A stretch of DNA of 64,000 nucleotides from Minisyncoccota bacterium (GCA_018062765.1 JAGORR010000001.1:506485-570484), one strand, 5' to 3'; numbered from the stretch's first letter, positions 5,503 to 63,508 are shown. Notes: a model not told the origin generated them from the letters alone. A program made the numbers and translations.

Positions 5503-6024
5503 ATGGAGTTGCAGAGAAACCAATGGTACGTGGCGTGGTTCTTCGGAGCCCTCGCCATGTGGGACGAATTCTGCGGAAGGCCGGATACGTCTTACAAGTA
5601 CGAGGAACGCGGCACGAACCTGTGCCACCTCGTCCGCGTGATGACTCTCTATGCGGCCATCGTCATCGTCTCGCACGCAGCTATCGTCGTGGCCGCCATC
5701 TTCACGATTGTCTTCCTGCCGCCGGCACTCTTCGGCACGATGAACTATCTCATGCTTATCGCTGCGCTCGTGTTCGCGGTGATACTGGGATACGGCATCA
5801 AAGTGTTCATCGAGCGCCGCGAAGCAGGTATCACGCCGGCAATGCGCGCAGAAGCCGCGCGTAAGAAGAAGGAGGCGAGGGAGGCTGCTGAAGAGGCACG
5901 AGCGGCCGCAGCGTCGGAGCGCGGACCTGGCTTCTTCGAAATCGTCTGGCGATACGTCGTCGCTGCGAAGCAGAAGACCTGCCCGACGATCACCTTCCAT
6001 ATGCCGAACCGGGGAATTGCTTGA
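5503..6024 (+). CDS. hypothetical membrane protein
   Basis: AGGAGG SD 6 nt upstream; three predicted TM helices; charged K/E/A-rich C-terminal tail. Confidence 0.55.
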   Translation: MELQRNQWYVAWFFGALAMWDEFCGRPDTSYKYEERGTNLCHLVRVMTLYAAIVIVSHAAIVVAAIFTIVFLPPALFGTMNYLMLIAALVFAVILGYGIKVFIERREAGITPAMRAEAARKKKEAREAAEEARAAAASERGPGFFEIVWRYVVAAKQKTCPTITFHMPNRGIA

Positions 6025-6371
6025 TGGAAAACGTCATCCGCACCATCACCCTTCCCTGGAAGGCTCTCGCGGTCCTCGGCGTCTTCATCATATTCCTGAT
6101 GGGGCTCCAGGTCATCATTACGTTCCTGATTCAGGCCGGCACGGTCGTCGAGGAGCGCGCGTCGTGCACGCTCGTCTCGATAGAACCTGTCGAGTCCGCT
6201 ATCGTTGCGAACATCGACTGTTCCGGCCGCAAGATGCGCACAACGAATCCGAAGACCGTGTACGCGCTGATGCAGGACCCGACAAAGCCAATCGTCTGCA
6301 AGCTGATGGCAGCCGATAGCGCGAGTTCCTGTGGGCTCGATGAGCCAGAACAGGTCGCACCCGAAGATTGA
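6024..6371 (+). CDS. hypothetical small membrane-anchored protein
   Basis: ATG overlaps the upstream TGA (TGATG); one N-terminal TM helix; four Cys. Confidence 0.55.
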   Translation: MENVIRTITLPWKALAVLGVFIIFLMGLQVIITFLIQAGTVVEERASCTLVSIEPVESAIVANIDCSGRKMRTTNPKTVYALMQDPTKPIVCKLMAADSASSCGLDEPEQVAPED

Positions 6372-6383
6372 ACCACAAGTAGC

Positions 6384-6427
6384 ATCGCCCGCGACATAGT
6401 CGCGGGCGATTCTTTCTATTTTCTTAT
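6384..6427 (+). terminator. rho-independent terminator
   Basis: atcgcccgcgac-atag-tcgcgggcgat hairpin followed by tctttctattttctt. Confidence 0.8.
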
Positions 6428-6484
6428 TCGTTACGCGAGTTGGGGTTCAGATACGTGCGCCCTGGACCAGATGCGTGCGAAAAA

Positions 6485-7402
6485 TCACAACCACTTCTTG
6501 AAACGGAAGGATATATATACGAACAGAGAAGAGAGCGCCATCAGTATTAATACGATGAAGAATCCATCGGGGCGGCCCACGATAGGTGCGTACTGGCTGT
6601 TCATACCGAATACGCCAGCGATGAGAATAGGAGGAGAAGTAATGAACGCGATGATGGTGAGCGTCTTAATGATCTCGTTCTGGCTCGTCGAGAGCAGGGA
6701 GTCGTTCGTGCTGCGAAGCTCACGGGCGACCGCGCGATAACTTGCGATAAGTCCCGCAGCATGTGACCGCTCCGCCTCGATATGTGCACCATGCTCGCGG
6801 AAGCGCTTACCGAAGAACTCTGGCTTCGAGAGTTCCTGCAGGAAGGAGGAAAGCGGTTCAGCATGCCGAGCCAAGGTCGTATCGAATCGTAAAAGCGTGC
6901 GGCCAACCTCCGATATTGCGCGCACCGTCGCGCGCTCCTTCCCGGAGAAGATATCCGCTTCGATGCGCTCGAGTCGAAGCGCCGCCTGCTCCGCCTCGTT
7001 TCCTAACGCGCCATAGAGGCGACGGAATATACGCTCTAGGAGCACCGGAGCCTTCACATCATCCTTGGAGAACCCGAGGAGCTCCTCGGCCTCGAACACC
7101 TTGTGAAGGTTATGGATGGAGTCGATGACTTCGTACCGGGCAGTGATGATGAACTTAGGCCCGACGATGAAATCCATCTCCTGGTTTTTTGAGCCGCCCC
7201 CGGGGTCTGCGGTAGGGAAGTGGAGCACTGCGTACACGTAGTCCTCAAACGGAATAAAGAGCGGATAGGGCGTCGGACTTACGATTTCGTCCTCGATGCG
7301 TGCATCGATATTAAATTCACGCATCACTTGCCGCAGCTCATCGGCTCCGGGGGATTCAATGTCAATCCACGTCACGCTTCCGCGCGTGTGTCTCACGATC
7401 AT
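6485..7402 (-). CDS. corA: magnesium/cobalt transporter CorA
   Basis: 306 aa from MIVRHTRG...; two C-terminal TM helices with the GMN motif (GVFGMNSQY). Confidence 0.85.
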   Translation of the reverse strand: MIVRHTRGSVTWIDIESPGADELRQVMREFNIDARIEDEIVSPTPYPLFIPFEDYVYAVLHFPTADPGGGSKNQEMDFIVGPKFIITARYEVIDSIHNLHKVFEAEELLGFSKDDVKAPVLLERIFRRLYGALGNEAEQAALRLERIEADIFSGKERATVRAISEVGRTLLRFDTTLARHAEPLSSFLQELSKPEFFGKRFREHGAHIEAERSHAAGLIASYRAVARELRSTNDSLLSTSQNEIIKTLTIIAFITSPPILIAGVFGMNSQYAPIVGRPDGFFIVLILMALSSLFVYISFRFKKWL

Positions 7403-10664: not shown

Positions 10665-11366
10665 ATGGCAAAAGCCAAGCCTGAATCAGTGATTCCGACG
10701 ACTTCGCTGCTCGCGAAAATCATCGATCAAGTCAACACAAACCCGTTCGGCGATGTTCGTGCGCCAAGCGAGATGATTCCGTCTGGCGTCGAGTCGATTG
10801 GCGTCGCGCCCGACTACATCCGGCGGCTCGTCACCATCGAGGTCGATCTTCAGTTCGTGCACGACAAGGTCGCGGCGGAGCTCAAAGAGCTCAGTGGCCG
10901 GCTCGAAGCGGCCGTCGGCATCAAGAAGGGGCCGATGGATCTCGCGGGGTATGTGCGATCAGTTCTCGAGAGCGACCTCACGGTCGAGGATCTCGACAAT
11001 AAGCTCGAGCTCGAGCGGCAGCACTGGATCATCCATGCCAGGATGAAGATGCTCCGGGAACTCATCAAAGCTGAGCTGATCTTCGCCTTCCCGACGGCGG
11101 TCGACGACTTCGGCAAACCGAGGACGCTCACCGTGTACTCGAACTGGTCGGTGGCGCCGGTGAAAGGACGGCTCGAGAGCCTCCTTGAAGGCCTCACCGA
11201 GGCCGCAATGAATGCCTCCCGCAGCGGCAACGGCTCGGGGCGCCCCGTACCTGAGTTCGACGATACCGACGAGGTGTCTGCTATGTTCGATGGACTCTTC
11301 GGGAGCTCTCCCGGTCTCGGGGACATTCTTCGCCAGGCCGGAGAGGGTGCGCGCTTCGGCGAGTGA
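10665..11366 (+). CDS. hypothetical protein
   Basis: 233 aa, acidic, no recognised domain; own promoter and terminator. Confidence 0.6.
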   Translation: MAKAKPESVIPTTSLLAKIIDQVNTNPFGDVRAPSEMIPSGVESIGVAPDYIRRLVTIEVDLQFVHDKVAAELKELSGRLEAAVGIKKGPMDLAGYVRSVLESDLTVEDLDNKLELERQHWIIHARMKMLRELIKAELIFAFPTAVDDFGKPRTLTVYSNWSVAPVKGRLESLLEGLTEAAMNASRSGNGSGRPVPEFDDTDEVSAMFDGLFGSSPGLGDILRQAGEGARFGE

Positions 11367-50538: not shown

Positions 50539-51267
50539 CTAATGTACGGTCAGATGGGTCAGTACCTCCGGAAGGTCCGCATCCCGCTCGGGAATGAAGC
50601 GCGGACCCTCGTAGGGCTCGCCAGCCTTCGTGGTGCGGTCGCGGATAGGATCGAAGAACCCGTCGCCGTTCCAATAGAACGGGCGCAGGATGAGGTTCCC
50701 TGCGTGCGGCGGATACAGGGGGACATAGAGAGTCGAGAGTTTCTCGCTTCCCTTCCCGCCTGAAAGGCGACCGGTGCCGAGTATCGCATAGCGATTGCTC
50801 GGATCCTTCCAGAGCTTCGCGTATCCCGGCTGGATGCCGGTTCCGGTCGCAAGCTCTTCAAGCATGTCGAGAGGGCGGCAGGGCCGGCGCATGATGTACC
50901 GGATGCCGAGCTTCTGCGTGAGCCCGATGCTCGAGTTGACCGGCGCGAGGAATTCGGAAAGCAGGATGCAGGTCGCTGCGAATCCGGCACGCGGCAAGAC
51001 TGCATAGAACTCGCGGGTCTCCACGTTCTGGGCGACGCCGAGCACCTTGCATTCGTTGCCGTCGTAGTCCTCGTACACGCCGCACGGCGCGAACCCGCGG
51101 ATGACCCTCTCGAATTCGCGGATTTCTTCATCGCTGTAGTGCCGGCTTTTGCCGACCAGAGGCATCTCATGCGCGAGGCGATGCGATGCGATGGTCTGCA
51201 GCTGCGGCGTAACGTGTTCCCTCCAAAGCGCGACCGACGGTTTCGGCTGCGAATCAAGTATCAGCAT
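50539..51267 (-). CDS. hypothetical protein
   Basis: 242 aa; no confidently recognised domain; the alternative-frame table ORF 50559-51257 is an Arg/Ser-rich artefact. Confidence 0.55.
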   Translation of the reverse strand: MLILDSQPKPSVALWREHVTPQLQTIASHRLAHEMPLVGKSRHYSDEEIREFERVIRGFAPCGVYEDYDGNECKVLGVAQNVETREFYAVLPRAGFAATCILLSEFLAPVNSSIGLTQKLGIRYIMRRPCRPLDMLEELATGTGIQPGYAKLWKDPSNRYAILGTGRLSGGKGSEKLSTLYVPLYPPHAGNLILRPFYWNGDGFFDPIRDRTTKAGEPYEGPRFIPERDADLPEVLTHLTVH

Positions 51268-51347
51268 TGCGTTTGACTCCCGTAAAGAGCAGCGGGCCTA
51301 CTCGCCCACAGCTGCCGATACTAGCGCCATTCGCTCCTTTTATCCAG

Positions 51348-51376
51348 TTGGCATCAGGGTCGTTTTTGGGTACACT
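51348..51376 (+). promoter_or_regulatory. sigma70-like promoter TTGGCA-17-TACACT for the tRNA
   Basis: lies 32 nt upstream of the tRNA 5' end. Confidence 0.45.
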
Positions 51377-51408
51377 CGCCTATGACCGTCCTCGGACGGT
51401 CATGACAT

Positions 51409-51480
51409 TCCGCGATAGCTCAATGGTAGAGCAGCGCCCTGTTAAGGCGTTGGTTGTAGGTTCGAGTCCTACTCGCGGAG
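51409..51480 (+). tRNA. tRNA-Asn (anticodon GTT)
   Basis: manual cloverleaf: acceptor tccgcga/tcgcgga, D arm gctc-aatggta-gagc, anticodon stem gcgcc/ggcgt with loop cTGTTaa, T arm gtagg-ttcgagt-cctac; CCA not encoded. Confidence 0.85.
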
Positions 51481-51488
51481 CAAAGACG

Positions 51489-51512
51489 AAAGGCGCCTTA
51501 GGGCGCTTTTCG
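51489..51512 (+). terminator. rho-independent terminator after the tRNA
   Basis: aggcgcc-ttag-ggcgct then tttt. Confidence 0.65.
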
Positions 51513-51620
51513 CGTTGCTCCGCGAAACAGAAGCGAGGCGGTTGCGAGGAAGCTCTGCTTTCCGCACCCTCCTCGCAAGGGCTTCGATCTTATTATCCGA
51601 GACCTCTTCTTGCCGGTACA

Positions 51621-52943
51621 ATGGGTCAAATGTCCCGCGTCTCCTCCTTCACGTTTGGTACTTACAAAGTAGACACGGCGACTTCTACGCTCTCCTTCAC
51701 CTACAAGATCGGTTTTAAAAGCGGAAGGGTAAAAACATACACAGACCAGCTCTTTCTTCATGGCGTACCGCCGGAGGCGTGGGAGAAGATACCTAAGTCC
51801 GTACTCGAGCCGACCTTACAGAGCCTGCTCCTCATGCTCGGTATCAACTACTGGACCGTCTACCCGACGAGAAACATGCGTATCGAGGGATTTACGCTGA
51901 CGCGCGAACAGGCCGAGTTCTGGAACTCCCTTTACCTTAACGGCCTCGCGGAGTTCTTCTACCTCATGAAGATGGATTTTCATGACCTCATCGCGTTTCC
52001 CTTTGATGAATCTGCGATAGCGTCCGTGCCGACCGCCTTTAAGCGCCCTACACGCTCCTTGCTTCTTAACGGCGCCGGCAAGGACTCCATCCTTTCCGCG
52101 GAGATGCTGAAGGAATCCGGTACCCCGTTCGACTTTTTTGCATTCTCGCCGACGCTCGCGCATGAACGAATCGCGAAATTAGTCGGTGCGAATACCGTAC
52201 ACGTCACTCGTCGCAGGGACCCATGGATTAAGTTTCCGGTGACCTTTGGCGCCGTATCAACCGCATACCCCTCCGTCTCCACATTCACCTTCATAGCGGT
52301 ACTCGTCGCGGAGCTTCTTGGGTATGACTCAATCGTATTCTCTAACGAACGGAGCGCGGATATCGGCAACCTCACGTACCATGGACTCCCCGTCAATCAC
52401 CAATGGTGCAAGTCTTCCGAGGCAGAGAAGATGACCAATGACTACATCCAGCGCTACATCACGCCGGACATCAGGACGAGTTCTCTATTGCGAAAGTTCA
52501 GCGAGCTCGAGATAGTCCGCCGCTTCGTTACGTACCCGCAGTACCTGTATGCGGTCACAAGCTGCAATAGTTACTTCTGTTTTTCGCGCTTCGAACAGCG
52601 CTTTCTGCGAACGCCCTATTGGTGTCGGTCATGCCCAAAATGCGTGTTCCTTTTCTCCTGCTTTGCTGCTTTCCTTCCGAAAGATGAAGTGGTCGCCATG
52701 TTCGGCGCAAATCTATACGCGCGTAGACGCCATCTGCGCCTCATCAGAAGGATACTCGGACTGGAAGGATTCAAACCGCTCGATTGCGTTGGCGAGCCCG
52801 AAGAAATGATTCTCGCAATGCATTACGCTGCCGAAGGTAAGGAATACGAGGGTACTCCCGCGATGCGAGTCTTTAGTGAGCGCTTTCCGTCGACGTACGA
52901 TTTCGCGGAGGCCGAGCGAAAGGTATTTGCAACCGGTTCGTAG
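51621..52943 (+). CDS. PP-loop-like (adenine nucleotide alpha-hydrolase superfamily) protein with CxxCxxC motif, function unknown
   Basis: NGAGKDS (variant SGGxDS) and downstream WCRSCPKC cluster; 440 aa from MGQMSRV; the upstream part of the table ORF spans the tRNA and terminator. Confidence 0.5.
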   Translation: MGQMSRVSSFTFGTYKVDTATSTLSFTYKIGFKSGRVKTYTDQLFLHGVPPEAWEKIPKSVLEPTLQSLLLMLGINYWTVYPTRNMRIEGFTLTREQAEFWNSLYLNGLAEFFYLMKMDFHDLIAFPFDESAIASVPTAFKRPTRSLLLNGAGKDSILSAEMLKESGTPFDFFAFSPTLAHERIAKLVGANTVHVTRRRDPWIKFPVTFGAVSTAYPSVSTFTFIAVLVAELLGYDSIVFSNERSADIGNLTYHGLPVNHQWCKSSEAEKMTNDYIQRYITPDIRTSSLLRKFSELEIVRRFVTYPQYLYAVTSCNSYFCFSRFEQRFLRTPYWCRSCPKCVFLFSCFAAFLPKDEVVAMFGANLYARRRHLRLIRRILGLEGFKPLDCVGEPEEMILAMHYAAEGKEYEGTPAMRVFSERFPSTYDFAEAERKVFATGS

Positions 52944-55019: not shown

Positions 55020-55065
55020 CGCCAAACGCCCCCGACAAAGTCGGGGGCGTTCTACGTCTACACTA

Positions 55066-55100
55066 GTGCAAAAGAAAGGCCGCCAGCATTGCTGGCGGCC
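55066..55100 (-). terminator. rho-independent terminator of the flotillin gene
   Basis: ggccgccagc-aat-gctggcggcc then tttcttttgc on the minus strand. Confidence 0.75.
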
Positions 55101-55133
55101 TGAGTTCGTCTTGAAAGACAGTATCCAGAAACG

Positions 55134-56534
55134 CTATGCGGTGCGCGGAGCGGGATCTGCGCCGGCGCCGTTTGTCGCGATTGCGACAGGCGGTGTTGCG
55201 GGCGCTTCTTCCTTCGCTTCCGACTCACCCACACCCATCGTGTTCAGCACTGCTGCACCCGTGGGCGTATTCTTGAGGCCCTCGAGCAAACTGCCGAGCG
55301 CAGTACCGCCCGCCGACGACAACAAGCTGCCGATCGACGTGAGGCCTGTGTCCATGGCGCCGGCGTTCGCGATCACCTTGATGTCGGCCGCCTTCAGCGC
55401 TTCCGCCTGGGCGACACCGACGACCTGGTTGGCCTTCACCAGCTCGACACGGACCAGATAGTCCTGGTACCCGTTGTTGTTGCCGATCTCCTTCGCGAGC
55501 GTCATCTGGGCAGTGACCGGAGCCATGAACTTGGCGGTGTCGGCGGCGCCGACTGCCTCGCCCTCGACCTTCACGCCTTCGGCGTGCAGCTTCGCGGCGT
55601 CCAAGTTGCCCTGAGCCGTGATGACCGTCGTCTGCTTGGTCTGGTCTGCTGCCACGACGGCGGAGTCTCGCGTGATCTCGGCCTGTTTTACTTGGCCGAC
55701 GCGAATGACCTCCATCTCCTTCTCGCGAGTGATCGCTTCTTGTGCGGTCACTGCCTGCTTTGCCTCTTGGTTGGCGATGCCGACGAGCTTGTCCTTCTCG
55801 GCGGTACGCGTGCCGACGAACTGCTCGGCCTCCTGAGTGCGAACATCGACCGCCTGCTTGGCTTCGATTTCCGCAGTCTGAGCTGCCTGGCCATTCTTCG
55901 CCACTTCAACACGGGATTCCATGTTGATGTGCGAGGACTTCTTCGCCATGATGTTGGCGATGACCTGGCTGCCATCCGCATCGCGGATGTCCATCAGCTC
56001 GATATTCTTCACGGGCTCTACGCCCCAGTTCTCGAGCTCCTTCTTCACCTCGTCGGTGAATTGTTGGCCGAAGGTAGCGCGGTCCACCATGATCTGGTGA
56101 ATGTCGTTCGACGCCAGAATCTTTCTGACGGCGCCCTGCACCACCGACATCAGCTGGTGATGCAGGCTCTTGAAGTCAGCGACCCGTTCCGCAGCCTGAT
56201 TGGTGTCCTTGATGCGGAAGAATGCGGTCACGTCGATCTCGAACGGCAGACGATCCTTGTCATACGACTTGTACTGCGTGAGATGCAGGTCGAAGTTCGA
56301 CACAGGAAAGTGCGTGCTGGTGACGCCGATAAGCGGCACCCAACGCGGCCAGCGGTAGTAGACGTTGCCGGCGCTTTGGGTCGCCCCGTACGAGACGGTC
56401 TTGCGACGGCGCTGGACGATGTGGACCATGTTCGTATCGACGACCGATCTGAACATGATCGAGAGCAGGAGCACGAGAGCAAGGACCGCGAGGCCGCCGA
56501 CCACGTACAGTGCCCAAACTGGAAGTTCTTCCAT
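55134..56534 (-). CDS. flotillin-like SPFH/band 7 protein
   Basis: N-terminal TM, SPFH domain and long Ala/Glu/Gln-rich flotillin repeat region; start at MEELPVW. Confidence 0.8.
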   Translation of the reverse strand: MEELPVWALYVVGGLAVLALVLLLSIMFRSVVDTNMVHIVQRRRKTVSYGATQSAGNVYYRWPRWVPLIGVTSTHFPVSNFDLHLTQYKSYDKDRLPFEIDVTAFFRIKDTNQAAERVADFKSLHHQLMSVVQGAVRKILASNDIHQIMVDRATFGQQFTDEVKKELENWGVEPVKNIELMDIRDADGSQVIANIMAKKSSHINMESRVEVAKNGQAAQTAEIEAKQAVDVRTQEAEQFVGTRTAEKDKLVGIANQEAKQAVTAQEAITREKEMEVIRVGQVKQAEITRDSAVVAADQTKQTTVITAQGNLDAAKLHAEGVKVEGEAVGAADTAKFMAPVTAQMTLAKEIGNNNGYQDYLVRVELVKANQVVGVAQAEALKAADIKVIANAGAMDTGLTSIGSLLSSAGGTALGSLLEGLKNTPTGAAVLNTMGVGESEAKEEAPATPPVAIATNGAGADPAPRTA

Positions 56535-56775
56535 AGGTAGTACCCTCGAGTGCAGTCCCGGAATGGGCGCTGCGCGGAGTCGCTCTTGGCGAACCGCGGT
56601 CAAGGCTCTCTAAAGCCCTTACTGCGATTCACCAAGACGCTCCCGAGGTGTTTCTGGATATGCGTCTTTCAAGCAAGCTGCTTCTGGATTTGATAATGGG
56701 ACTTATAAGAGATTTGTCAATAGGCTACAGGAAACGCCTCCCGAGCTAGGTCGGGAGGCGTTTCCGCGTCAGAGG

Positions 56776-57876
56776 CTAGTATCCGAACATCCAGGTGGTT
56801 CCCTTCACCGGGAGATTCGCACGTACCTTTCCGTTCGTCTCAACTCCTGTCACATCAATCATCAAGGAGCTGCCTGCGTAGACAGCAACTGAGGAGCCTA
56901 CCTGTGCCTTTATAGTGAAGAGTTTCGTTTCGCCAGGCAGCAAGGTGCCGTTTGCCGGCGCTGTTGCAACACCCTTCGAAAACGGACGCGTGCCGGTCGA
57001 TGCTGCGCGAGAGAGCCCCTTATCGTCTACCGTCGAGAGCTGGATAATTCCATCAGTAGACGCGCGACCGTTCTGCTTCAACATAAAGCCCGTGACGGTC
57101 GCTGGCTTGTTGCCGATGTTCGATACCTGAAGGTACGAGAGTGGGATAGAGGCATTCGCACGTGCGACACCACCCGAGAGAAGCGGCACAGCTGATACCA
57201 CAAGCGTCGTGTCGACCGATGCGGTCTTCTTGTCTCCAATCACGAGCGTGCTGTCTGCAAGATCGCGACTCCCTAGCTTCTTAGGTCCAATGAGGGTCAA
57301 ATCGTACGCACCTTCTGAAAGTTTTTTTGATACCTTTACGCGCCATTTTCCATTCTTCACCTTGGTCTCCTTAGTCGTGTACGTCTTCCCCTCCCCATCA
57401 GCTGGGGTAATGACTACACGCACAGCAGTAACACCCTCCGCAGTCCCGGAGAGGTACGGCTTCTTGTTTGCCTTAGACTCGTACAAATCCTCCGAGAAAC
57501 TCGCGTCAACGATATTCACGTCGACAGAGCAGGTAGCTTTTCGGCTACCTGAGCGGAACTCGTATGAGTAGGTCTCGGAAGTCGAGGCAGTGAATGTGGT
57601 AGAGCCGGTAAGTTCAATATCCTCTCCGCGAGGACCTTCCGCAGTCTTCGCATTCTTTCCCTCCCATGCGATGTCTACTTTCTCTCCAACGTCGACAAGC
57701 ATGACGCCCTCGTCCCGGATGGTAAGGCGGTCATCCTCCGAGGTGGTCACTCTAAGCTCGCATGAAGGACGCGTCGACGCGGCTCCTGCAGCAAACGGTG
57801 TAAAGAGGAGCATGCCACCGACTGTCGTTACAAGGGTGGTGCGCAGGAGTGTGAAAGTAGTCATGAATAGGTGCAT
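56776..57876 (-). CDS. secreted hypothetical protein (beta-rich)
   Basis: signal peptide (MHLFMTTFTLL...AAGAAS); T/S/V/K-rich beta-strand-like repeats. Confidence 0.5.
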   Translation of the reverse strand: MHLFMTTFTLLRTTLVTTVGGMLLFTPFAAGAASTRPSCELRVTTSEDDRLTIRDEGVMLVDVGEKVDIAWEGKNAKTAEGPRGEDIELTGSTTFTASTSETYSYEFRSGSRKATCSVDVNIVDASFSEDLYESKANKKPYLSGTAEGVTAVRVVITPADGEGKTYTTKETKVKNGKWRVKVSKKLSEGAYDLTLIGPKKLGSRDLADSTLVIGDKKTASVDTTLVVSAVPLLSGGVARANASIPLSYLQVSNIGNKPATVTGFMLKQNGRASTDGIIQLSTVDDKGLSRAASTGTRPFSKGVATAPANGTLLPGETKLFTIKAQVGSSVAVYAGSSLMIDVTGVETNGKVRANLPVKGTTWMFGY

Positions 57877-57981
57877 TACGCGTATAGAGCTGTAGACGGC
57901 AGAGCGTAGCATTTCTTGCATGAAGACAAGGACACCCGGCGTTTAAGGCGCCGGGTGTCCTTGTCTTCTGCATAATTGGTC

Positions 57982-58251
57982 CTAGATGCCCGAGACGTCG
58001 TTGCCGACGATATCATCTGAAGGGCTGGTGATGATGATTACGCCGCTTCTTGCGTGGATGCTGGGAGCTGTCGCAATCGCTGACTGCCAGTCGTTTGCGA
58101 CAACAGTACGAACCTCGCCCGAGGTGTTGACGTAGGCGTAGGTTGCTGCGGATGCGAAGACCGGGAGCGCAAGCGCCGCGGCGACGCCTACGAGTGCCGC
58201 GCTGCGCACGAGCGTACGCGTAAGACCGTTCTTAGAGGTGGAATGAGTCAT
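57982..58251 (-). CDS. small secreted hypothetical protein
   Basis: signal peptide ...PVFASAAT; 89 aa. Confidence 0.45.
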   Translation of the reverse strand: MTHSTSKNGLTRTLVRSAALVGVAAALALPVFASAATYAYVNTSGEVRTVVANDWQSAIATAPSIHARSGVIIITSPSDDIVGNDVSGI

Positions 58252-58445: not shown

Positions 58446-58796
58446 ATGGCTCGATTCCTGGTTCTCTACACCGCCCCTGCCGCCACCCTAGATGAATGGA
58501 TGAAGACGCCGGAGGAGGAGCGCAAAGCACTCGAGGCAAAGATGAAAGCCAATTGGGATGCATGGATGGCTTCGCACGGCTCCATGATTAAGGAAACCGC
58601 GGGTGCAGGTTCGACAAAACGCGTAACCTCGGACGGTGTCGCAAACGTACGGAACGACATCATGCTCTACTCCTTCGCCGAAGCGGAATCCGCGGAGGTC
58701 GTTGCCGATGCATTCAAAGGCCACCCTCATTTTGGGATACCGGGCGCTGCAATTGACGTGATGCCCGCCAATCCGCTACCGGGTATAGGCGCGTAG
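58446..58796 (+). CDS. hypothetical protein (possible dimeric alpha/beta-barrel, YciI-like)
   Basis: MARFLVLY... N-terminus typical of YciI/Dabb-type proteins; 116 aa. Confidence 0.45.
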   Translation: MARFLVLYTAPAATLDEWMKTPEEERKALEAKMKANWDAWMASHGSMIKETAGAGSTKRVTSDGVANVRNDIMLYSFAEAESAEVVADAFKGHPHFGIPGAAIDVMPANPLPGIGA

Positions 58797-58824: not shown

Positions 58825-59745
58825 ATGAAGCGCGTTATCACTCTTTCAGTCCTCGTTGCGCTCGCATTCGTCACACCTTACGCCAGCGTCGAGGCCGCAA
58901 CCAAGAAATCGATTGTAACGGGCCCCATCGCGGACGCGACCGTGAACCTCTACTGTCGCATTAAGTCCGGCCGGAAAACCTACGCAACCTCCGGAAGCGG
59001 GGTCTTTATCGACGCGCGAGGCGTTATCCTCACGAACGCGCACGTCGCTAAAAACAACATTATTGCTGAGGAGGATGGGAAAGTAGAAGGGCGCTGCACA
59101 GTGCGCATGGGTACGCCGGCCAAAGATCGATACGAAGCAGAAATTCTTTACTTCCCTTCTACCTGGATTAGCGAGAATGCGTCAGAGCTTACGAAGCGCA
59201 TGCCAAAGGGTACCGGGGAGAACGACTTTGCGCTTCTATATGTCACAAAGGCAAAGAAGGGCTCACTTCCCTCAGCGTTTCCCTTCCTCGCTCCAGATGT
59301 CCTGGGAGGCGTCTCTGAGGGAGATGCCATCACGGTCGCGGGATATCCTACCGAGGGATTTAGCTTTGCGAAGCTAGAGAAGAAGCTTCCCTTGGTTGCC
59401 GCAAGCTCCACCATAACCGCTTCGCAATACTTTAGCGCAGCACGCCTACAGGACTCCGTGACCATCGCAGAGTCTAAGGCGGGAAGTCCTGGAATTTCCG
59501 GTGGCCCCGTCATAAACGCATCGAATGAGGTGATTGGTATCGCGGCCGTTAAGGGTGCAGCAAAAGATAATCACACGCTGCGCGCTATCACGCTCCCCTA
59601 CATTAACCGCATCATATTTAGTGAGACCGGGATTTCCTTGCCCGCACTCCTTTCAAGCGAATATGGAGCACTCGCATCGCTCAGCCGTGCCAAAATCAGT
59701 GAGTCGGCAGTGAAAACACTTGAGAACGGACTACTCGCAAATTGA
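58825..59745 (+). CDS. secreted trypsin-like serine protease (S1 family)
   Basis: signal peptide; catalytic His (ILTNAHV), Asp region, Ser (GSPGISGGPV). Confidence 0.7.
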   Translation: MKRVITLSVLVALAFVTPYASVEAATKKSIVTGPIADATVNLYCRIKSGRKTYATSGSGVFIDARGVILTNAHVAKNNIIAEEDGKVEGRCTVRMGTPAKDRYEAEILYFPSTWISENASELTKRMPKGTGENDFALLYVTKAKKGSLPSAFPFLAPDVLGGVSEGDAITVAGYPTEGFSFAKLEKKLPLVAASSTITASQYFSAARLQDSVTIAESKAGSPGISGGPVINASNEVIGIAAVKGAAKDNHTLRAITLPYINRIIFSETGISLPALLSSEYGALASLSRAKISESAVKTLENGLLAN

Positions 59746-59758
59746 ATTGCAACACTAT

Positions 59759-59786
59759 TTGATTTATATGTTTAGCGTGGTATAAA
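59759..59786 (+). promoter_or_regulatory. sigma70-like promoter TTGATT-16-TATAAA with TGG extended -10
   Basis: tggtataaact element shared with the 60137 promoter. Confidence 0.5.
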
Positions 59787-59826
59787 CTGCTTCATACGCA
59801 GTGTTTGTTCTTCACAGGAGGACGTA

Positions 59827-60075
59827 ATGAAAACCGCCGCAGACGCATACCACAATCGACTTGCGGAACTGGGGAGTTCAGACGAAGTAGTGACGCTCCA
59901 TCGCAAGGACGCTACGAACGTTTCCGGGAAGGTCACGTCAACTACCGCTGACGGGGTAACGATGAGCTTTTCGCATCCGACCAACGCGGAAGCGAGGACT
60001 GACGTGTTTGTTGCCTACGGAGACATCCGCGGCATCGAAACGACGGACTGGGATTACAACGTCATCAGCAACTGA
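59827..60075 (+). CDS. hypothetical small protein
   Basis: AGGAGG SD; 82 aa. Confidence 0.55.
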   Translation: MKTAADAYHNRLAELGSSDEVVTLHRKDATNVSGKVTSTTADGVTMSFSHPTNAEARTDVFVAYGDIRGIETTDWDYNVISN

Positions 60076-60113
60076 CACGAGCAAACGGGCGACCCCTTGG
60101 GTCGCCCGCACTA

Positions 60114-60142
60114 TTTGCACATATCCGCTTTATATGGTATAA
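60114..60142 (+). promoter_or_regulatory. sigma70-like promoter TTGCAC-17-TATAAA with TGG extended -10
   Basis: tatatggtataaact nearly identical to the 59781 promoter. Confidence 0.5.
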
Positions 60143-60187
60143 ACTACATCGTCCGAACGGGACGTGATCTTTTATTGGAGATTCAGC

Positions 60188-60814
60188 ATGGCATTCGACC
60201 GAGCCGCGGCATACACCGCCGATGTACTCGAATTCATCGCGGGGCGCGTGAGTGAAATCGAAGCGAGCGGCAACTTCGCGAATCCTGCGCAGGACGTCCC
60301 CGAGGGCATCAGTGTCATCGCTGTCGTCCTCACGGACCGCCACAAGGCGCTCAATACGCTCATCATCGAACTCGAGGATGAACATCGGGCAGCCCACATC
60401 GAGATGACCGCGGTCGCCAAGTCCGCCAAGAGCGAGCTCGAGACGATGCTGGCGTCCCAGGTCGACCAGGACCACGTGAAGAAGTTGGCCGACGACGTCC
60501 TCACCGTCGATCGCAAGCACGCCCGCATCAAGGAGATCGGCAAGATCTCGGCCCTCATGCTCATCGAGAGCATGAAGCGTGAGTTTCCGCTTCTCCTGAA
60601 GAGCAACCGCTTCGCCATCGCCAAGAATTGGCAGGTGTACGAGAAGCCGTCACGCACGTCCGTGCTGCTGCGCGAGCTGGTCAGCGCGTTCGGCGACATG
60701 CCGGGCTTTGCCGGCGCTGCCTACGTCGGCAAGGACGGACTCGAATTTGCAGGCTCCGATGACGAGCCGCGCCCCGGCTTCTTCAATCGCATTCGCCGGC
60801 GCATGGGCGGATAA
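60188..60814 (+). CDS. hypothetical protein
   Basis: 208 aa from MAFDRAAAY; GGAG SD. Confidence 0.55.
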   Translation: MAFDRAAAYTADVLEFIAGRVSEIEASGNFANPAQDVPEGISVIAVVLTDRHKALNTLIIELEDEHRAAHIEMTAVAKSAKSELETMLASQVDQDHVKKLADDVLTVDRKHARIKEIGKISALMLIESMKREFPLLLKSNRFAIAKNWQVYEKPSRTSVLLRELVSAFGDMPGFAGAAYVGKDGLEFAGSDDEPRPGFFNRIRRRMGG

Positions 60815-60820
60815 GCGCCA

Positions 60821-60865
60821 AAGCCCCATTCGCACACCACGTGCGAACGGGGCTTCTCTTTGTAT
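60821..60865 (+). terminator. rho-independent terminator
   Basis: gccccattcgcac-acca-gtgcgaacggggc then ttctctttgtat. Confidence 0.75.
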
Positions 60866-60887
60866 ACCAGCGACCCCGGGCAGCAGG

Positions 60888-60916
60888 TTGAAATAACGCC
60901 AATCATGTGGCATAAA
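60888..60916 (+). promoter_or_regulatory. sigma70-like promoter TTGAAA-17-CATAAA with TGG extended -10
   Basis: upstream of the 60954 gene. Confidence 0.45.
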
Positions 60917-60953
60917 TAGCCGGTCCATTCTGGACTGTTCTTTGGAGGAATAC

Positions 60954-61442
60954 ATGGCGCGTGCCACCAGCGTTCTTGCCCTGATTACGAGCCGGCTCGC
61001 GGCTCTCGATCCGGCAAACTTCGTCGAACCGGACTATGTTCCGGACGAAAGCGACCACAAGGTCGAAGGGGTGTTCCCCGACGATCTGAAGCGGCTCTTC
61101 ACGCTCCGCGAGCATCTACGCGAAGAGTACAACGCACTCGTCCAGAAGGCGCAGGCATTCGCCAAGTCGGATGCGCCTGACGCGACAGAGAAGGAAGCGC
61201 TTCTCGGCTCGCTTGAACGCGGCAAGAAGCTCTATGAGCTCGTCACTGCAATGTTCTGGGAAGATGTGAATCGTACCTTCCCAGAAGTCGCGCCGAAGAA
61301 TGCAATCGCCATCGGCGTCGGCTGGACCGTTCACTGGAGCGACCCGAAGCCGACAAGCGATCTTGGCTCTCTCTTGAGCCGGCTCGTCGGGGGCGCAGTC
61401 GAAGTTGTCGTCGTCGGCCCCGGCAAGCGCCCGTTTGGCTAA
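60954..61442 (+). CDS. hypothetical protein
   Basis: 162 aa from MARATSVL; GGAGG SD. Confidence 0.55.
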   Translation: MARATSVLALITSRLAALDPANFVEPDYVPDESDHKVEGVFPDDLKRLFTLREHLREEYNALVQKAQAFAKSDAPDATEKEALLGSLERGKKLYELVTAMFWEDVNRTFPEVAPKNAIAIGVGWTVHWSDPKPTSDLGSLLSRLVGGAVEVVVVGPGKRPFG

Positions 61443-61449
61443 CGTATCT

Positions 61450-61482
61450 AGGCCCGCCGCTTGCGGTGGGCCTTCTGTTTAT
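61450..61482 (+). terminator. rho-independent terminator
   Basis: ggcccgccgc-tt-gcggtgggcc then ttctgtttat. Confidence 0.75.
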
Positions 61483-61494
61483 ACTCGGTGCTGT

Positions 61495-61523
61495 TTGACA
61501 TCCGGCCCTGAGGGCCGTAAAAC
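61495..61523 (+). promoter_or_regulatory. sigma70-like promoter TTGACA-17-TAAAAC
   Basis: upstream of the 61560 gene. Confidence 0.5.
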
Positions 61524-61559
61524 CGGATAAGACTCCAAGGACCAGCGGAAGGATATCGG

Positions 61560-61817
61560 ATGCTCGCTATCGAATTCTCTACCTTCGATACGGATGAAGC
61601 GATCGAGTACCTCAATAAAATCAAGCGGCGCATGAAGGGCAAGAAAGTCTCGCCCGAATACCGCGAACAAATTGAAGCGTGCCTTGCGGGCGTCAAGAAC
61701 GCCGAGGGATTCATCACCCGCTTCCGACTTGTCGACATTGGGATGATGCGCGAAGTCGAACGCCTCGCCACAGTCGAGGATGAACGCGAAGCTCGTAGTA
61801 AACCGACCGTGCACTAA
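61560..61817 (+). CDS. hypothetical small protein
   Basis: 85 aa; GGAAGGA SD. Confidence 0.55.
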   Translation: MLAIEFSTFDTDEAIEYLNKIKRRMKGKKVSPEYREQIEACLAGVKNAEGFITRFRLVDIGMMREVERLATVEDEREARSKPTVH

Positions 61818-61820
61818 CCC

Positions 61821-61858
61821 AGGCCGCCCGACTTTGCTCGGGCGGCACTTCATATACT
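61821..61858 (+). terminator. terminator hairpin
   Basis: gccgcccga-ctttgc-tcgggcggc. Confidence 0.65.
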
Positions 61859-61927
61859 GCACGTAGTAATTGACAAATACTATTTTTTAGGTATGTTATA
61901 TTTAAACGTCCTTTACAGGAGGCATGA

Positions 61928-62560
61928 GTGCGAACAGAAGAGATTCGGAACTGGCTTGAGAGTCTGACACGCTCCTACGGGAACCCCCGGCGAAGCGTGG
62001 AAGAGGCTCCGCTCCGGGCGCTCTATGACGCAAAGGACTGGCCTGGGCTCGTCTCGCGCATTAAGACAACGCTACTGCTGGGTCCGCTTCGCGTGAAGCT
62101 ACGCCTCGTCGCAGAGTCTAAGGAGACGGCGCCGATGTGGATCAATGGACTTTCGGACATGCCGATGTTCGGCACGAAGGAGTTCAACGGCCACACCGTC
62201 ACGCTGAGCGCGAAGAGCGCGTTCCTCAGGGAGCGAAGCTTCGAGACCATCGTGCTCGGCTTCGCGCACGAACTCTGTCACGCAGTCGCTGACGCCGTAA
62301 GACAGGAGTACTTCAACATCGAGGAGACCATCGACCTCACGGCGATGTTCCTCGGCTTCTCGAACTTCTACCTCAAAGGCGCGAAGGTCAGGGTATTCAG
62401 GACCGCGCCCGGATACGAAGAAAGCCTTGCGGTACTCAAGGACCTCAGCCCACGTGCTCACGCAGCGATGCTTAAGGAGCTCGAAGTCAGCGCAGACCAG
62501 CTAGTCGGATACCTCAGTATCGAGGAAATCCGCTACGCACGCGCACTCATGCGTTGCTAG
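61928..62560 (+). CDS. hypothetical protein with HExxH motif (putative ImmA/IrrE-like metallopeptidase)
   Basis: GTG start after an AGGAGG SD; HELCH motif in FAHELCHAVAD; TTGACA -35 at 61870. Confidence 0.5.
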   Translation: MRTEEIRNWLESLTRSYGNPRRSVEEAPLRALYDAKDWPGLVSRIKTTLLLGPLRVKLRLVAESKETAPMWINGLSDMPMFGTKEFNGHTVTLSAKSAFLRERSFETIVLGFAHELCHAVADAVRQEYFNIEETIDLTAMFLGFSNFYLKGAKVRVFRTAPGYEESLAVLKDLSPRAHAAMLKELEVSADQLVGYLSIEEIRYARALMRC

Positions 62561-62570
62561 TCATTACGCC

Positions 62571-62606
62571 ATACGGCGCGGAATATTCCGCGCCGTATTT
62601 GTTTTA
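62571..62606. terminator. bidirectional terminator
   Basis: tacggcgcgg-aatatt-ccgcgccgta then tttgtttt. Confidence 0.8.
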
Positions 62607-63380
62607 TGACTGCTCCTCGCTTCCCTTCTCGAACGATTCGTACAAGCGCCTGGCGAGCTCCGTTCCATCTCTTCGTGCTTCGTTAATCTGCTCCTGGGTT
62701 ATCGGGCCCTCTCGCGCGTCCCACGGCGTCCATGCGAATTCCTGTCCCACGGAAGGCATTGCGAGCGTGCTACCTGTCTTCTTGGCTACCCCGCTCACGC
62801 GACGATTTGAAAACACGCTTGTCGGCATCTCTTCCATTCCGAAATACACTGATCCGCCGAAACGTTCCTCAAGCTCATCAACTGACGACGCGTTACCATC
62901 GTGTCTGCGCAAATGTCCGATAGCTGCGATATCAAACGAAACGTTTTTATCTTTCAAAATGGGTGTCACGTTCGCGAGCGTAGCGCCGCTCGCGATAATG
63001 TCGGTTATAAAGAGGGCGCGTGCGCTCTTGTCGCCCGCGAGCGCGTCAAGGTGAGGCGAGAAGCGCTGTGCTATCTCTGTGCGCTCGGTATCAGGTTGTG
63101 CGCCCCGGTTGCCGGCGAAATAAAGAGTGAGCGGGTGCGGGAAGCCTCGCTTGTCATACGCGGATTTAATAACGCGCGACAGGATGTGGGTCGGTATACG
63201 GCCCGACGCATCATCGCCGATAAGCACTCGGTATTCCCCGCGTTCGATATGCGGCCGGATACTCTCCAAGATACGCTCCATCGGCTCCTGAAGCTCCTCG
63301 AACCGGTTTCCCTCCGGCTCCGGTGGTGCAAGCTCATCCTTGGATTCGCCTTTTAGATAATTCGTCAGTCGTTCGTTCAT
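62604..63380 (-). CDS. phosphoribosyltransferase-domain protein (type I PRTase fold)
   Basis: PRPP-binding motif ALFITDIIASGATL. Confidence 0.55.
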   Translation of the reverse strand: MNERLTNYLKGESKDELAPPEPEGNRFEELQEPMERILESIRPHIERGEYRVLIGDDASGRIPTHILSRVIKSAYDKRGFPHPLTLYFAGNRGAQPDTERTEIAQRFSPHLDALAGDKSARALFITDIIASGATLANVTPILKDKNVSFDIAAIGHLRRHDGNASSVDELEERFGGSVYFGMEEMPTSVFSNRRVSGVAKKTGSTLAMPSVGQEFAWTPWDAREGPITQEQINEARRDGTELARRLYESFEKGSEEQS

Positions 63381-63472
63381 GCGGGCCAGTATAGCAACCG
63401 GAAATCCCTGTCGCTGCCGTATAGAGCGAAAGACCGCCCCGGTTCAGACTCATGAACTCCGGGGTAGCAGGG

Positions 63473-63508
63473 TAAAAAGACACCGGCCGAGTGGCCGGTG
63501 TCTTTTGG
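63473..63508. terminator. bidirectional terminator
   Basis: aaaagacaccggcc-gagt-ggccggtgtctttt. Confidence 0.8.

Follow-up and report, generated by a model that had tools for sequence, protein, structure and literature searches.

The window analyzed here is a 64,000-nt stretch of DNA from a Minisyncoccota bacterium (GCA_018062765.1, JAGORR010000001.1:506485-570484), and our subject is an array of five consecutive plus-strand open reading frames (ORFs) towards its end: g1 (59827–60075), g2 (60188–60814), g3 (60954–61442), g4 (61560–61817) and g5 (61928–62560). An initial annotation of the window had described them as orphan genes, each with its own promoter and terminator, and ORF calling returned all five with the same boundaries. 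The g5 protein has an exact match on contig JAGOQO010000004.1 of assembly GCA_017991435.1, a metagenome-assembled genome that carries the NCBI name 'Candidatus Pacebacteria bacterium' and belongs to the Candidate Phyla Radiation (CPR). The other genes of the window are those of an ordinary chromosome, including MurG, two penicillin-binding proteins, an M23 peptidase and three aminoacyl-tRNA synthetases (class I Glu/Gln, class I Lys and one of class II), and the GC content of the array (0.52–0.59) is the same as that of the rest of the window. All five ORFs are preceded by a well-spaced Shine-Dalgarno sequence. Their codon log-likelihood ratios (0.21–0.41 per codon) are host-like and fall inside the range found for 21 of 22 reference long ORFs (0.13–0.42), and those of the ORFs antisense to the array are all lower (−0.19 to 0.13).

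Promoter-like sites (P1–P5) precede the five genes on the plus strand, and the hexamers quoted in the initial annotation are present at 59759, 60115, 60888, 61495 and 61870. P1 (59753–59788) comprises a CACTATTTG block holding the −35 element TTGATT (59759–59764), followed by a 16-nt spacer and TATAAA, with the extended −10 sequence TGGTATAAACT at 59778–59788. P2 (60109–60145) is built on the same CACTATTTG block, with the −35 element TTGCAC (60115–60120), a 17-nt spacer, TATAAA and the extended −10 sequence TGGTATAAACT at 60135–60145. The remaining sites are P3 (60888–60916; TTGAAA-17-CATAAA with TG upstream of the −10 element, TGGCATAAA), P4 (61495–61523; TTGACA-17-TAAAAC) and P5 (61870–61902; TTGACA followed either by TATGTT at a 16-nt spacing or by TGTTATATT). 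The sites carry either sigma-70 hexamers spaced by 16–18 nt or an extended −10 element. Within the 64 kb, CACTATTTG (0.24 occurrences expected) and TGGTATAAACT are each found at P1 and P2 alone, for a total of 20 nt of common promoter sequence. The proposal of three nearly identical extended −10 contexts thus stands for P1 and P2, which share TGGTATAAACT exactly, and not for the third promoter, which reads TGGCATAAATA.

The more general extended −10 pattern TGnYATAnn is found in four of the five array spacers, as compared to 0.41 expected at the intergenic rate (P ~ 9e-4). Counting both strands, the window contains 20 copies, of which 12 are intergenic. The pattern also lies upstream of the genes at 10665 (+), 28648 (−), 39940 (−) and 63380 (−), which makes it a general promoter style of this genome rather than a motif private to the array. 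The TGnTATAAA-type boxes of the array, located ~30 nt upstream of the Shine-Dalgarno sequence and start codon, resemble the extended −10 (TGn) class of sigma-70 promoters, from which they differ in ending with A or C instead of T. We also observed two promoter-like sites on the minus strand, TTGTCA-16-TATGAA at 61876, which overlaps the −35 element of P5 and would drive antisense transcription into g4, and TGGTATACA at 60869, just past the hairpin following g2, which would drive antisense transcription into g2; both may reflect no more than a chance resemblance within the A/T-rich tails of terminators. In addition, the predicted 5′ untranslated regions (UTRs) of g1, g2 and g3 begin with a 5–7-bp stem-loop and a T-rich run (59786–59802, 60150–60164 and 60921–60937, respectively). 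All three were flagged by the terminator scan, and the fold of the whole g1 UTR is not significant (z = 0.25); they could be 5′ stabilizing hairpins, attenuators or chance.

Every gene of the array is followed by a stable, GC-rich hairpin (T1–T5). Those previously proposed at 60821, 61450, 61821 and 62571 are real, with folding energies of −20 to −30 kcal/mol and z scores of −3.3 to −7.1, and a fifth, T1, had been overlooked. T1 (60086–60108, plus strand) is a 10-bp hairpin after g1 (−24.9 kcal/mol, z = −5.7) with a weak T tract. T2 (60821–60855, plus strand) is an imperfect 14-bp hairpin followed by CTCTTTGTAT (−24.5 kcal/mol, z = −5.1), T3 (61450–61473, plus strand) a 10-bp hairpin followed by TCTGTTTATA, and T4 (61821–61846, plus strand) a hairpin after g4 with a poor T tract. 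T5 (62571–62598, no strand assigned) is a perfect palindromic 12-bp hairpin between g5 and a convergent gene encoding 258 amino acids (aa), with the lowest energy of the set (−29.6 kcal/mol, z = −7.1), and is probably a bidirectional terminator. With GC-rich stem-loops 6–11 nt past the stop codons, the hairpins look like intrinsic terminators, as distinct from which the T tracts of several of them are interrupted or poor.

Taken as a whole, the array would comprise five transcription units that follow one another independently in a Paceibacteria (CPR) chromosome. Each would begin with a promoter of the sigma-70 type, in most cases extended −10, and continue with a short 5′ UTR (~20–36 nt) containing a Shine-Dalgarno sequence, a single ORF and a GC-rich hairpin terminator. 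This layout had been regarded as an exception in a window otherwise organized in operons, a view that we could not sustain, since 18 further ORFs of the window show the same arrangement: a hairpin directly downstream together with ≥45 nt of upstream spacer characterizes 23 of 79 crude ORF calls, and GC-rich hairpins (≥8 bp) are found in 26 spacers. From 50 to 63.4 kb, nearly all genes are single-gene, hairpin-ended units, among which the array is the longest run on one strand.

A comparison with a sister lineage divides the array in two. Using >90%-identical variants of g4, g5 and the upstream protease, we located four contigs (L068–L071) with 88–92% nucleotide identity to the window region, which is contig L001 in this comparison. 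The gene order in the sister lineage is protease, g4, g5 and a 182-aa gene. The blastn alignment with L068 ends at window position 59743, the stop codon of the protease, and restarts two bases ahead of the P4 TTGACA, at 61493. The intervening 1,749 bp with g1–g3 (59744–61492, plus strand, in the order P1-g1-T1-P2-g2-T2-P3-g3-T3) correspond to 39 unrelated bp in L068, with the junctions read directly, and the block sits exactly between the stop codon of the trypsin-like protease and the −35 element of P4. Presence and absence with conserved flanks is a property of g1–g3 only, as L068–L070 lack the block and retain flanks of 88–92% identity. The suggestion that these are accessory genes consequently holds for g1–g3 and fails for g4 and g5, which the sister lineage conserves. 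Two wider scans, one of the genome collection for synteny via the flanking protease and one of JGI metagenome DNA for the conserved P5 sequence, returned no match; the first result suggests that the genome and its near relatives are absent from that collection.

The regulatory DNA of g4 and g5 is more conserved between the two lineages than their coding DNA. From just before the −35 element of P4 to just past the g4 ATG (alignment columns 14–86), 71 of 73 positions are identical (97%), and the spacer from T4 to P5 is ~94% identical. The T4 stem is the same in both lineages, T5 is 100% identical in L068, and P5 keeps its −35 element and A/T-rich −10 region and does not keep the TG. Coding nucleotide identity is 87% for g4 and 92% for g5 (dS = 0.67 and 0.31, respectively), with dN/dS values of 0.06 and 0.075; purifying selection thus maintains both genes in the sister lineage, where the promoter and terminator of each are conserved as well. 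This conservation is the best support available for promoter and terminator function. g4 itself encodes an 85-aa protein that is confined to these two lineages (92% amino-acid identity in L068). Because g4 and g5 occur without g1–g3 in the sister lineage, and because P4 and P5 do not resemble P1–P3, the genes do not make up a single unit or regulon; the array would instead join two kinds of genes, an accessory block and a conserved pair, rather than form a single functional system.

Within the accessory block, g1 encodes an 82-aa ORFan with a GGAGG Shine-Dalgarno sequence and a codon log-likelihood ratio of 0.21; its 90%-identity cluster contains one sequence, present in two NCBI assemblies and one Logan assembly. 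g2 (208 aa) and g3 (162 aa) are paralogs over their full length (27% identity, BLASTP E = 4e-7, shuffle z = 12.4) and the one solid pair in pairwise comparisons among the five array proteins. Both have raised GC at third codon positions (GC3; 0.83 and 0.72, respectively, as compared to 0.60–0.68 typically in the window). The g1–g3 proteins are predicted to be cytoplasmic, and g2 and g3 mostly helical; an AlphaFold2 model of g2, also mostly helical, is poor (pLDDT 47), with an alignment of two sequences as input. A word-indexed search of 5.8 billion clustered proteins returned no g2 homolog besides g2 itself, IMG/VR and the JGI metagenomes contained no relatives of g2/g3, and g1–g4 had no match in 50,697 phage genomes. 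No family was matched by g1–g5 among the Pfam, PHROG, PADLOC and NCBIfam models (best single E = 0.0098, far short of the cut-off), and sequence searches of the PDB with g1, g2/g3, g4 and g5 found nothing. The label of orphan accordingly fits g1–g3, for which we found no homologs elsewhere, and has to be withdrawn for g4, which has an ortholog in the sister lineage, and for g5, which belongs to a large family described below.

The g2/g3 paralogy and the blocks common to P1 and P2 point to duplication within the block, which would have shaped it into tandem paralogs preceded by copies of one promoter. A common origin, as proposed at the outset, is thus supported for g2/g3 and for P1/P2 and does not extend to P4 and P5, whose sequences differ from P1–P3. 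Two fainter likenesses were observed, one between g2 residues 184–208 (60737–60811) and g4 residues 3–27 (61566–61640), with the pattern EF..D.......N.I.RRM.G (36% identity, pairwise E = 4e-4, shuffle z = 3.9), which is marginal and could be a common motif or a duplicated fragment, and another, also marginal, between g1 and an 89-aa neighboring protein (E = 0.009). Overall, the block resembles known strain-variable accessory (flexible) gene islets of lineage-specific ORFans in being present in one lineage and absent from a ~90%-identical sister, with clean intergenic junctions, no homologs elsewhere and signs of local duplication. It differs from such islets in its very small size (1.75 kb), in having no mobility genes or flanking repeats, and in that each of its genes has its own promoter and terminator; a further difference is that two nearby indels, of a Band_7 gene and of the 258-aa gene, also involve complete units bounded by hairpins.

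These neighboring indels were observed alongside the block. The 258-aa gene (62604–63380, minus strand), flanked by hairpins at 62571–62598 and 63475–63506, lies in a region (62606–63476) that corresponds to 16 bp in L068 and constitutes another strain-variable unit; its product shows faint phosphoribosyltransferase similarity (PHROG E = 5e-4, Pfam E = 0.17). A Band_7/SPFH gene (55134–56603, minus strand) with hairpins at 55077–55101 and 56730–56765 has a GC3 of 0.79, high like that of g2, and the whole unit (55052–56731) is absent from L068, where a single hairpin is left between the flanking convergent genes. Upstream of this region, genes for 249 and 65 aa (L001 1353–2635) are missing from L068, which has 46 bp instead. 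In all, four whole-gene indels of one to three genes each separate the two lineages within ~20 kb, and the boundaries that we read (g1–g3, the 258-aa gene and the Band_7 gene) are in intergenic DNA.

The last gene of the array, g5, encodes a 210-aa predicted soluble zinc metallopeptidase, in which the HExxH motif already recognized in the initial annotation corresponds to H114-E115-H118. An exhaustive search with a profile of two sequences, g5 and a Bradyrhizobium protein, returned 697 cluster representatives at E ≤ 1e-3, mainly from Patescibacteria and Alphaproteobacteria, of which 402 reach E ≤ 1e-10. In a 72-sequence family alignment, H114, E115, H118, E132, D136, L137, A139, M140, G143 and a C-terminal GYL..E are near-invariant, with E132 and D136 conserved in at least 90% of sequences. 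The AlphaFold2 model computed with this alignment (pLDDT 95.2, pTM 0.86) shows a beta sheet, an active-site helix (105–123) bearing HExxH and a following helix (132–151) that starts with E132xxxD136. Its PDB fold matches are selecase (probability 0.93), jannalysin, SPRTN, an HtpX domain, BlaR1 and Ste24, all of them weak (best E = 0.084), and matches among viral models (BFVD) are to zincin, SprT-like and M48 proteins (E from 2e-3). We found no relatives of g5 in IMG/VR.

In SprT-like and WLM zincins, the third zinc ligand is the histidine of HExxHx5H. The g5 motif, H114-E-L-C-H118-A-V-A-D-A-V124, has valine at position 124 and no histidine at +6. In gluzincin- and minigluzincin-type zincins, HExxH is instead complemented by a glutamate from the next helix as third ligand, and an ExxxD motif, as formed by E132 and D136 in g5, is reportedly found in minigluzincin, M48 and M56 proteins. 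Since g5 is without the third histidine of the SprT and WLM families, the glutamate E132 is most likely the third ligand, and we infer that g5 is catalytically active and would use H114, H118 and, probably, E132 to bind zinc and E115 as the catalytic base. Judged from the model, g5 would be a small soluble protein of the zincin fold whose active-site helix carries HExxH, in common with the minigluzincins (selecase, projannalysin), SprT/Spartan and WLM/Wss1. Compared with selecase, it is about twice as large, having an additional N-terminal helical part and a C-terminal part, and it differs from SprT and WLM zincins in lacking the third histidine and having the near-invariant E132xxxD136. No Pfam or NCBIfam model covers g5, which sets it apart from all of these groups: its score against Pfam WLM (PF08325) is 12.8 bits as compared to a cut-off of 26, the gathering score of neither SprT-like nor WLM is reached, and among the 72 relatives, three touch SprT-like (PF10263; best E = 8.8e-4) and one touches WLM (9e-6). 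WLM and SprT domains have structural organization in common with minigluzincins (PMC4559962).

A genome scan located 56 loci of the g5 family, mostly in Patescibacteria (Paceibacterota, Moraniibacteriota, Niyogibacteria, Adlerbacteria and bins labelled Saccharibacteria) and Alphaproteobacteria (Bradyrhizobium, Roseiarcus, Methylocapsa and Rhodopseudomonas), with more distant matches in Dehalococcoidia and others. The contexts of the homologs vary by locus (ATP synthase, FtsZ/SOD, clpB and, in one Bradyrhizobium, a defence-island-like set). Clustering of neighbors at 45 loci revealed no partner common across phyla, and a tblastn search of 65 other g5-family loci found no relatives of g1–g4. Together, these results indicate that g5 is a stand-alone gene whose adjacency to g1–g4 is lineage-specific, and its product would act as a stand-alone enzyme.

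Three features of the neighborhoods may be recorded. A clpB-family neighbor recurs in seven loci (L009, L016, L022, L024, L030, L040 and L042), mostly of Alphaproteobacteria, downstream of the g5 homolog in six and upstream in one; in L009, it is clpB itself (Pfam Clp_N, AAA and AAA_2), convergent with the g5 homolog. This recurrence probably reflects clade ancestry and synteny, or may be a hint of a proteostasis role. In Bradyrhizobium liaoningense (L003), the g5 homolog (~6001–6777) has an N-terminal extension of ~60 hydrophobic residues that, judged by eye, is probably membrane-spanning, and it adjoins DUF3644, a UvrD-like helicase with an AAA_21 ATPase and a reverse transcriptase, with the look of a defence island. 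Lastly, a 116-aa protein encoded two genes upstream of g1 (p116, 58446–58796) has a 32%-identical homolog in another genome assembly (L006, 7804–8154; tblastn E = 1e-15), which is ~2.3 kb from the g5 homolog there and represents the sole trace of a common neighborhood.

Considering all of the evidence, we assign a probability of about 0.75 to the reading that the array consists of five independent units, in which g1–g3 are strain-variable, g4 and g5 are conserved, and g5 is a metallopeptidase of the zincin fold. Several observations weigh against it. A strict sigma-70 scan accepted one of the five array promoters (61870), and the −10 hexamers TATAAA, CATAAA and TAAAAC are without the canonical final T. 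T-rich tails are found at T2, T3 and T5, whereas T1 and T4 have no good T tract, and the roles of P1–P5 as promoters and of the hairpins as terminators are deduced from sequence and conservation only. The fold matches of g5 are all weak (PDB E ≥ 0.08, BFVD E ≥ 2e-3, query-normalized TM-score ≤ 0.37), making its assignment past a zincin with HExxH tentative. The absence of g1–g3 from the sister lineage rests on metagenomic contigs, and with two lineages known, the difference may reflect either a gain of the block here or its loss there.

A bolder version of this reading, which we consider speculative and rather unlikely, holds that hairpin-bounded promoter-gene-terminator cassettes are the unit of gain and loss in this CPR lineage. 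On that account, g1–g3 would be recently born or acquired, would be spread and expressed by means of a duplicated, 'portable' P1/P2 promoter, and would have a strain-specific function, for instance in host interaction or defence of an episymbiotic cell, and g5 would represent a new soluble gluzincin-type family common to Patescibacteria and Alphaproteobacteria.

Among the rival explanations, the block or the whole array could be the remnant of a prophage or other mobile element, with moron-like cargo carrying its own promoters and terminators. Single genes with their own promoter and terminator, some of them variably present, are indeed what phage morons look like, and both the variable presence of g1–g3 between lineages and the raised GC3 of g2 and g3 would fit such a history. 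However, the array lies outside any prophage and has no phage homologs: neither an integrase nor a phage structural gene nor a tRNA attachment site was found near it (the sole tRNA is at 51409), PHROG gave no array match at E < 0.01, and the searches of IMG/VR (g2/g3 and g5) and of the phage genomes (g1–g4) were negative. Moreover, the block is not flanked by terminal repeats, its overall GC content matches the window and its codon usage is host-like, and the architecture is common to many ordinary genes of the window. We therefore regard a moron-like origin, which the initial annotation had raised, as very unlikely, and retain the reading of a strain-variable ORFan block next to two conserved genes.

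We give still less credence to the idea that the five genes form one co-regulated module, be it a stress or defence regulon or a damage-responsive switch, with a shared promoter motif and g5 as an ImmA/IrrE-like repressor-cleaving protease. The 20 nt common to P1 and P2, the extended −10 motif in four of five spacers, the HExxH of g5 and the one Bradyrhizobium homolog beside DUF3644, UvrD/AAA_21 and reverse-transcriptase genes speak for it, and g5 does resemble ImmA/IrrE (Peptidase_M78) in having HExxH in a protein of ~200 aa. However, common regulation is contradicted by the conservation of g4 and g5 without g1–g3 and by the dissimilarity of P3, P4 and P5 to P1/P2, with the extended −10 motif being general in the genome. 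A role in defence finds no backing in PADLOC, which gave no match at E ≤ 1 for g1–g5, p116 or the 258-aa gene. Apart from the Bradyrhizobium locus, g5 homologs lie among housekeeping genes, in settings that are unlike each other and unrelated to prophage switches. As for the ImmA/IrrE assignment, which we rejected, Peptidase_M78 (PF06114) had no match in g5 even at E ≤ 1 and none in the 72 relatives at E ≤ 0.01, IrrE-like proteins rank 41st among the viral fold matches (E = 0.12), and the fold matches weakly favor minigluzincin, SprT-like and M48 zincins. The earlier remark that no helix-turn-helix (HTH) partner is visible was correct, as there is no HTH domain in g4 or the 258-aa protein, none among the Pfam calls within the array, and no adjacent HTH/Xre gene.

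Least credible of all is the view that some of the small ORFs (g1, g4 or g2/g3) do not encode proteins, the transcripts being non-coding or the true genes being the long antisense ORFs, for which one may cite the lack of homologs of g1–g3, antisense ORFs of 105–175 aa and the minus-strand sites at 61876 and 60869, and which is countered by the codon scores and Shine-Dalgarno sequences of all five plus-strand ORFs, the full-length protein-level similarity of g2 and g3, the dN/dS values of 0.06–0.08 for g4 and g5 and an Rfam scan of 57–64 kb that gave no match inside the array.

Outside of the array, we observed two further items of use for annotation of the window. The 22nd reference ORF (51267–52943, plus strand, 558 aa) overlaps tRNA-Asn (51409–51481) and is non-coding-like in its codon log-likelihood ratio (−0.29) and GC3 (0.45); it is probably a false gene call. 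A perfect 22-bp hairpin (57922–57968) between the minus-strand genes 56776–57921 and 57982–58251 is probably a terminator, and its Rfam match to a plant microRNA family was discarded as spurious (32 bits as compared to a gathering score of 87).

For the biology of this organism, our results imply that the array is not to be handled as an operon, a regulon or a defence system, and is better treated as a strain-variable ORFan block followed by two conserved genes. The finding is largely ordinary, and its practical value modest. The two-lineage comparison is a small but clean illustration of how a reduced CPR genome gains or loses complete promoter-gene-terminator units. To our knowledge, the promoters of CPR bacteria are not well characterized experimentally, and the conservation of regulatory DNA seen here is useful for that reason. 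For the family, g5 supplies a high-confidence model and a 72-sequence alignment of an unannotated zinc metallopeptidase group. Neither Pfam nor NCBIfam has a model for this group, which is frequent in CPR bacteria and Bradyrhizobium-like Alphaproteobacteria and is open to curation.

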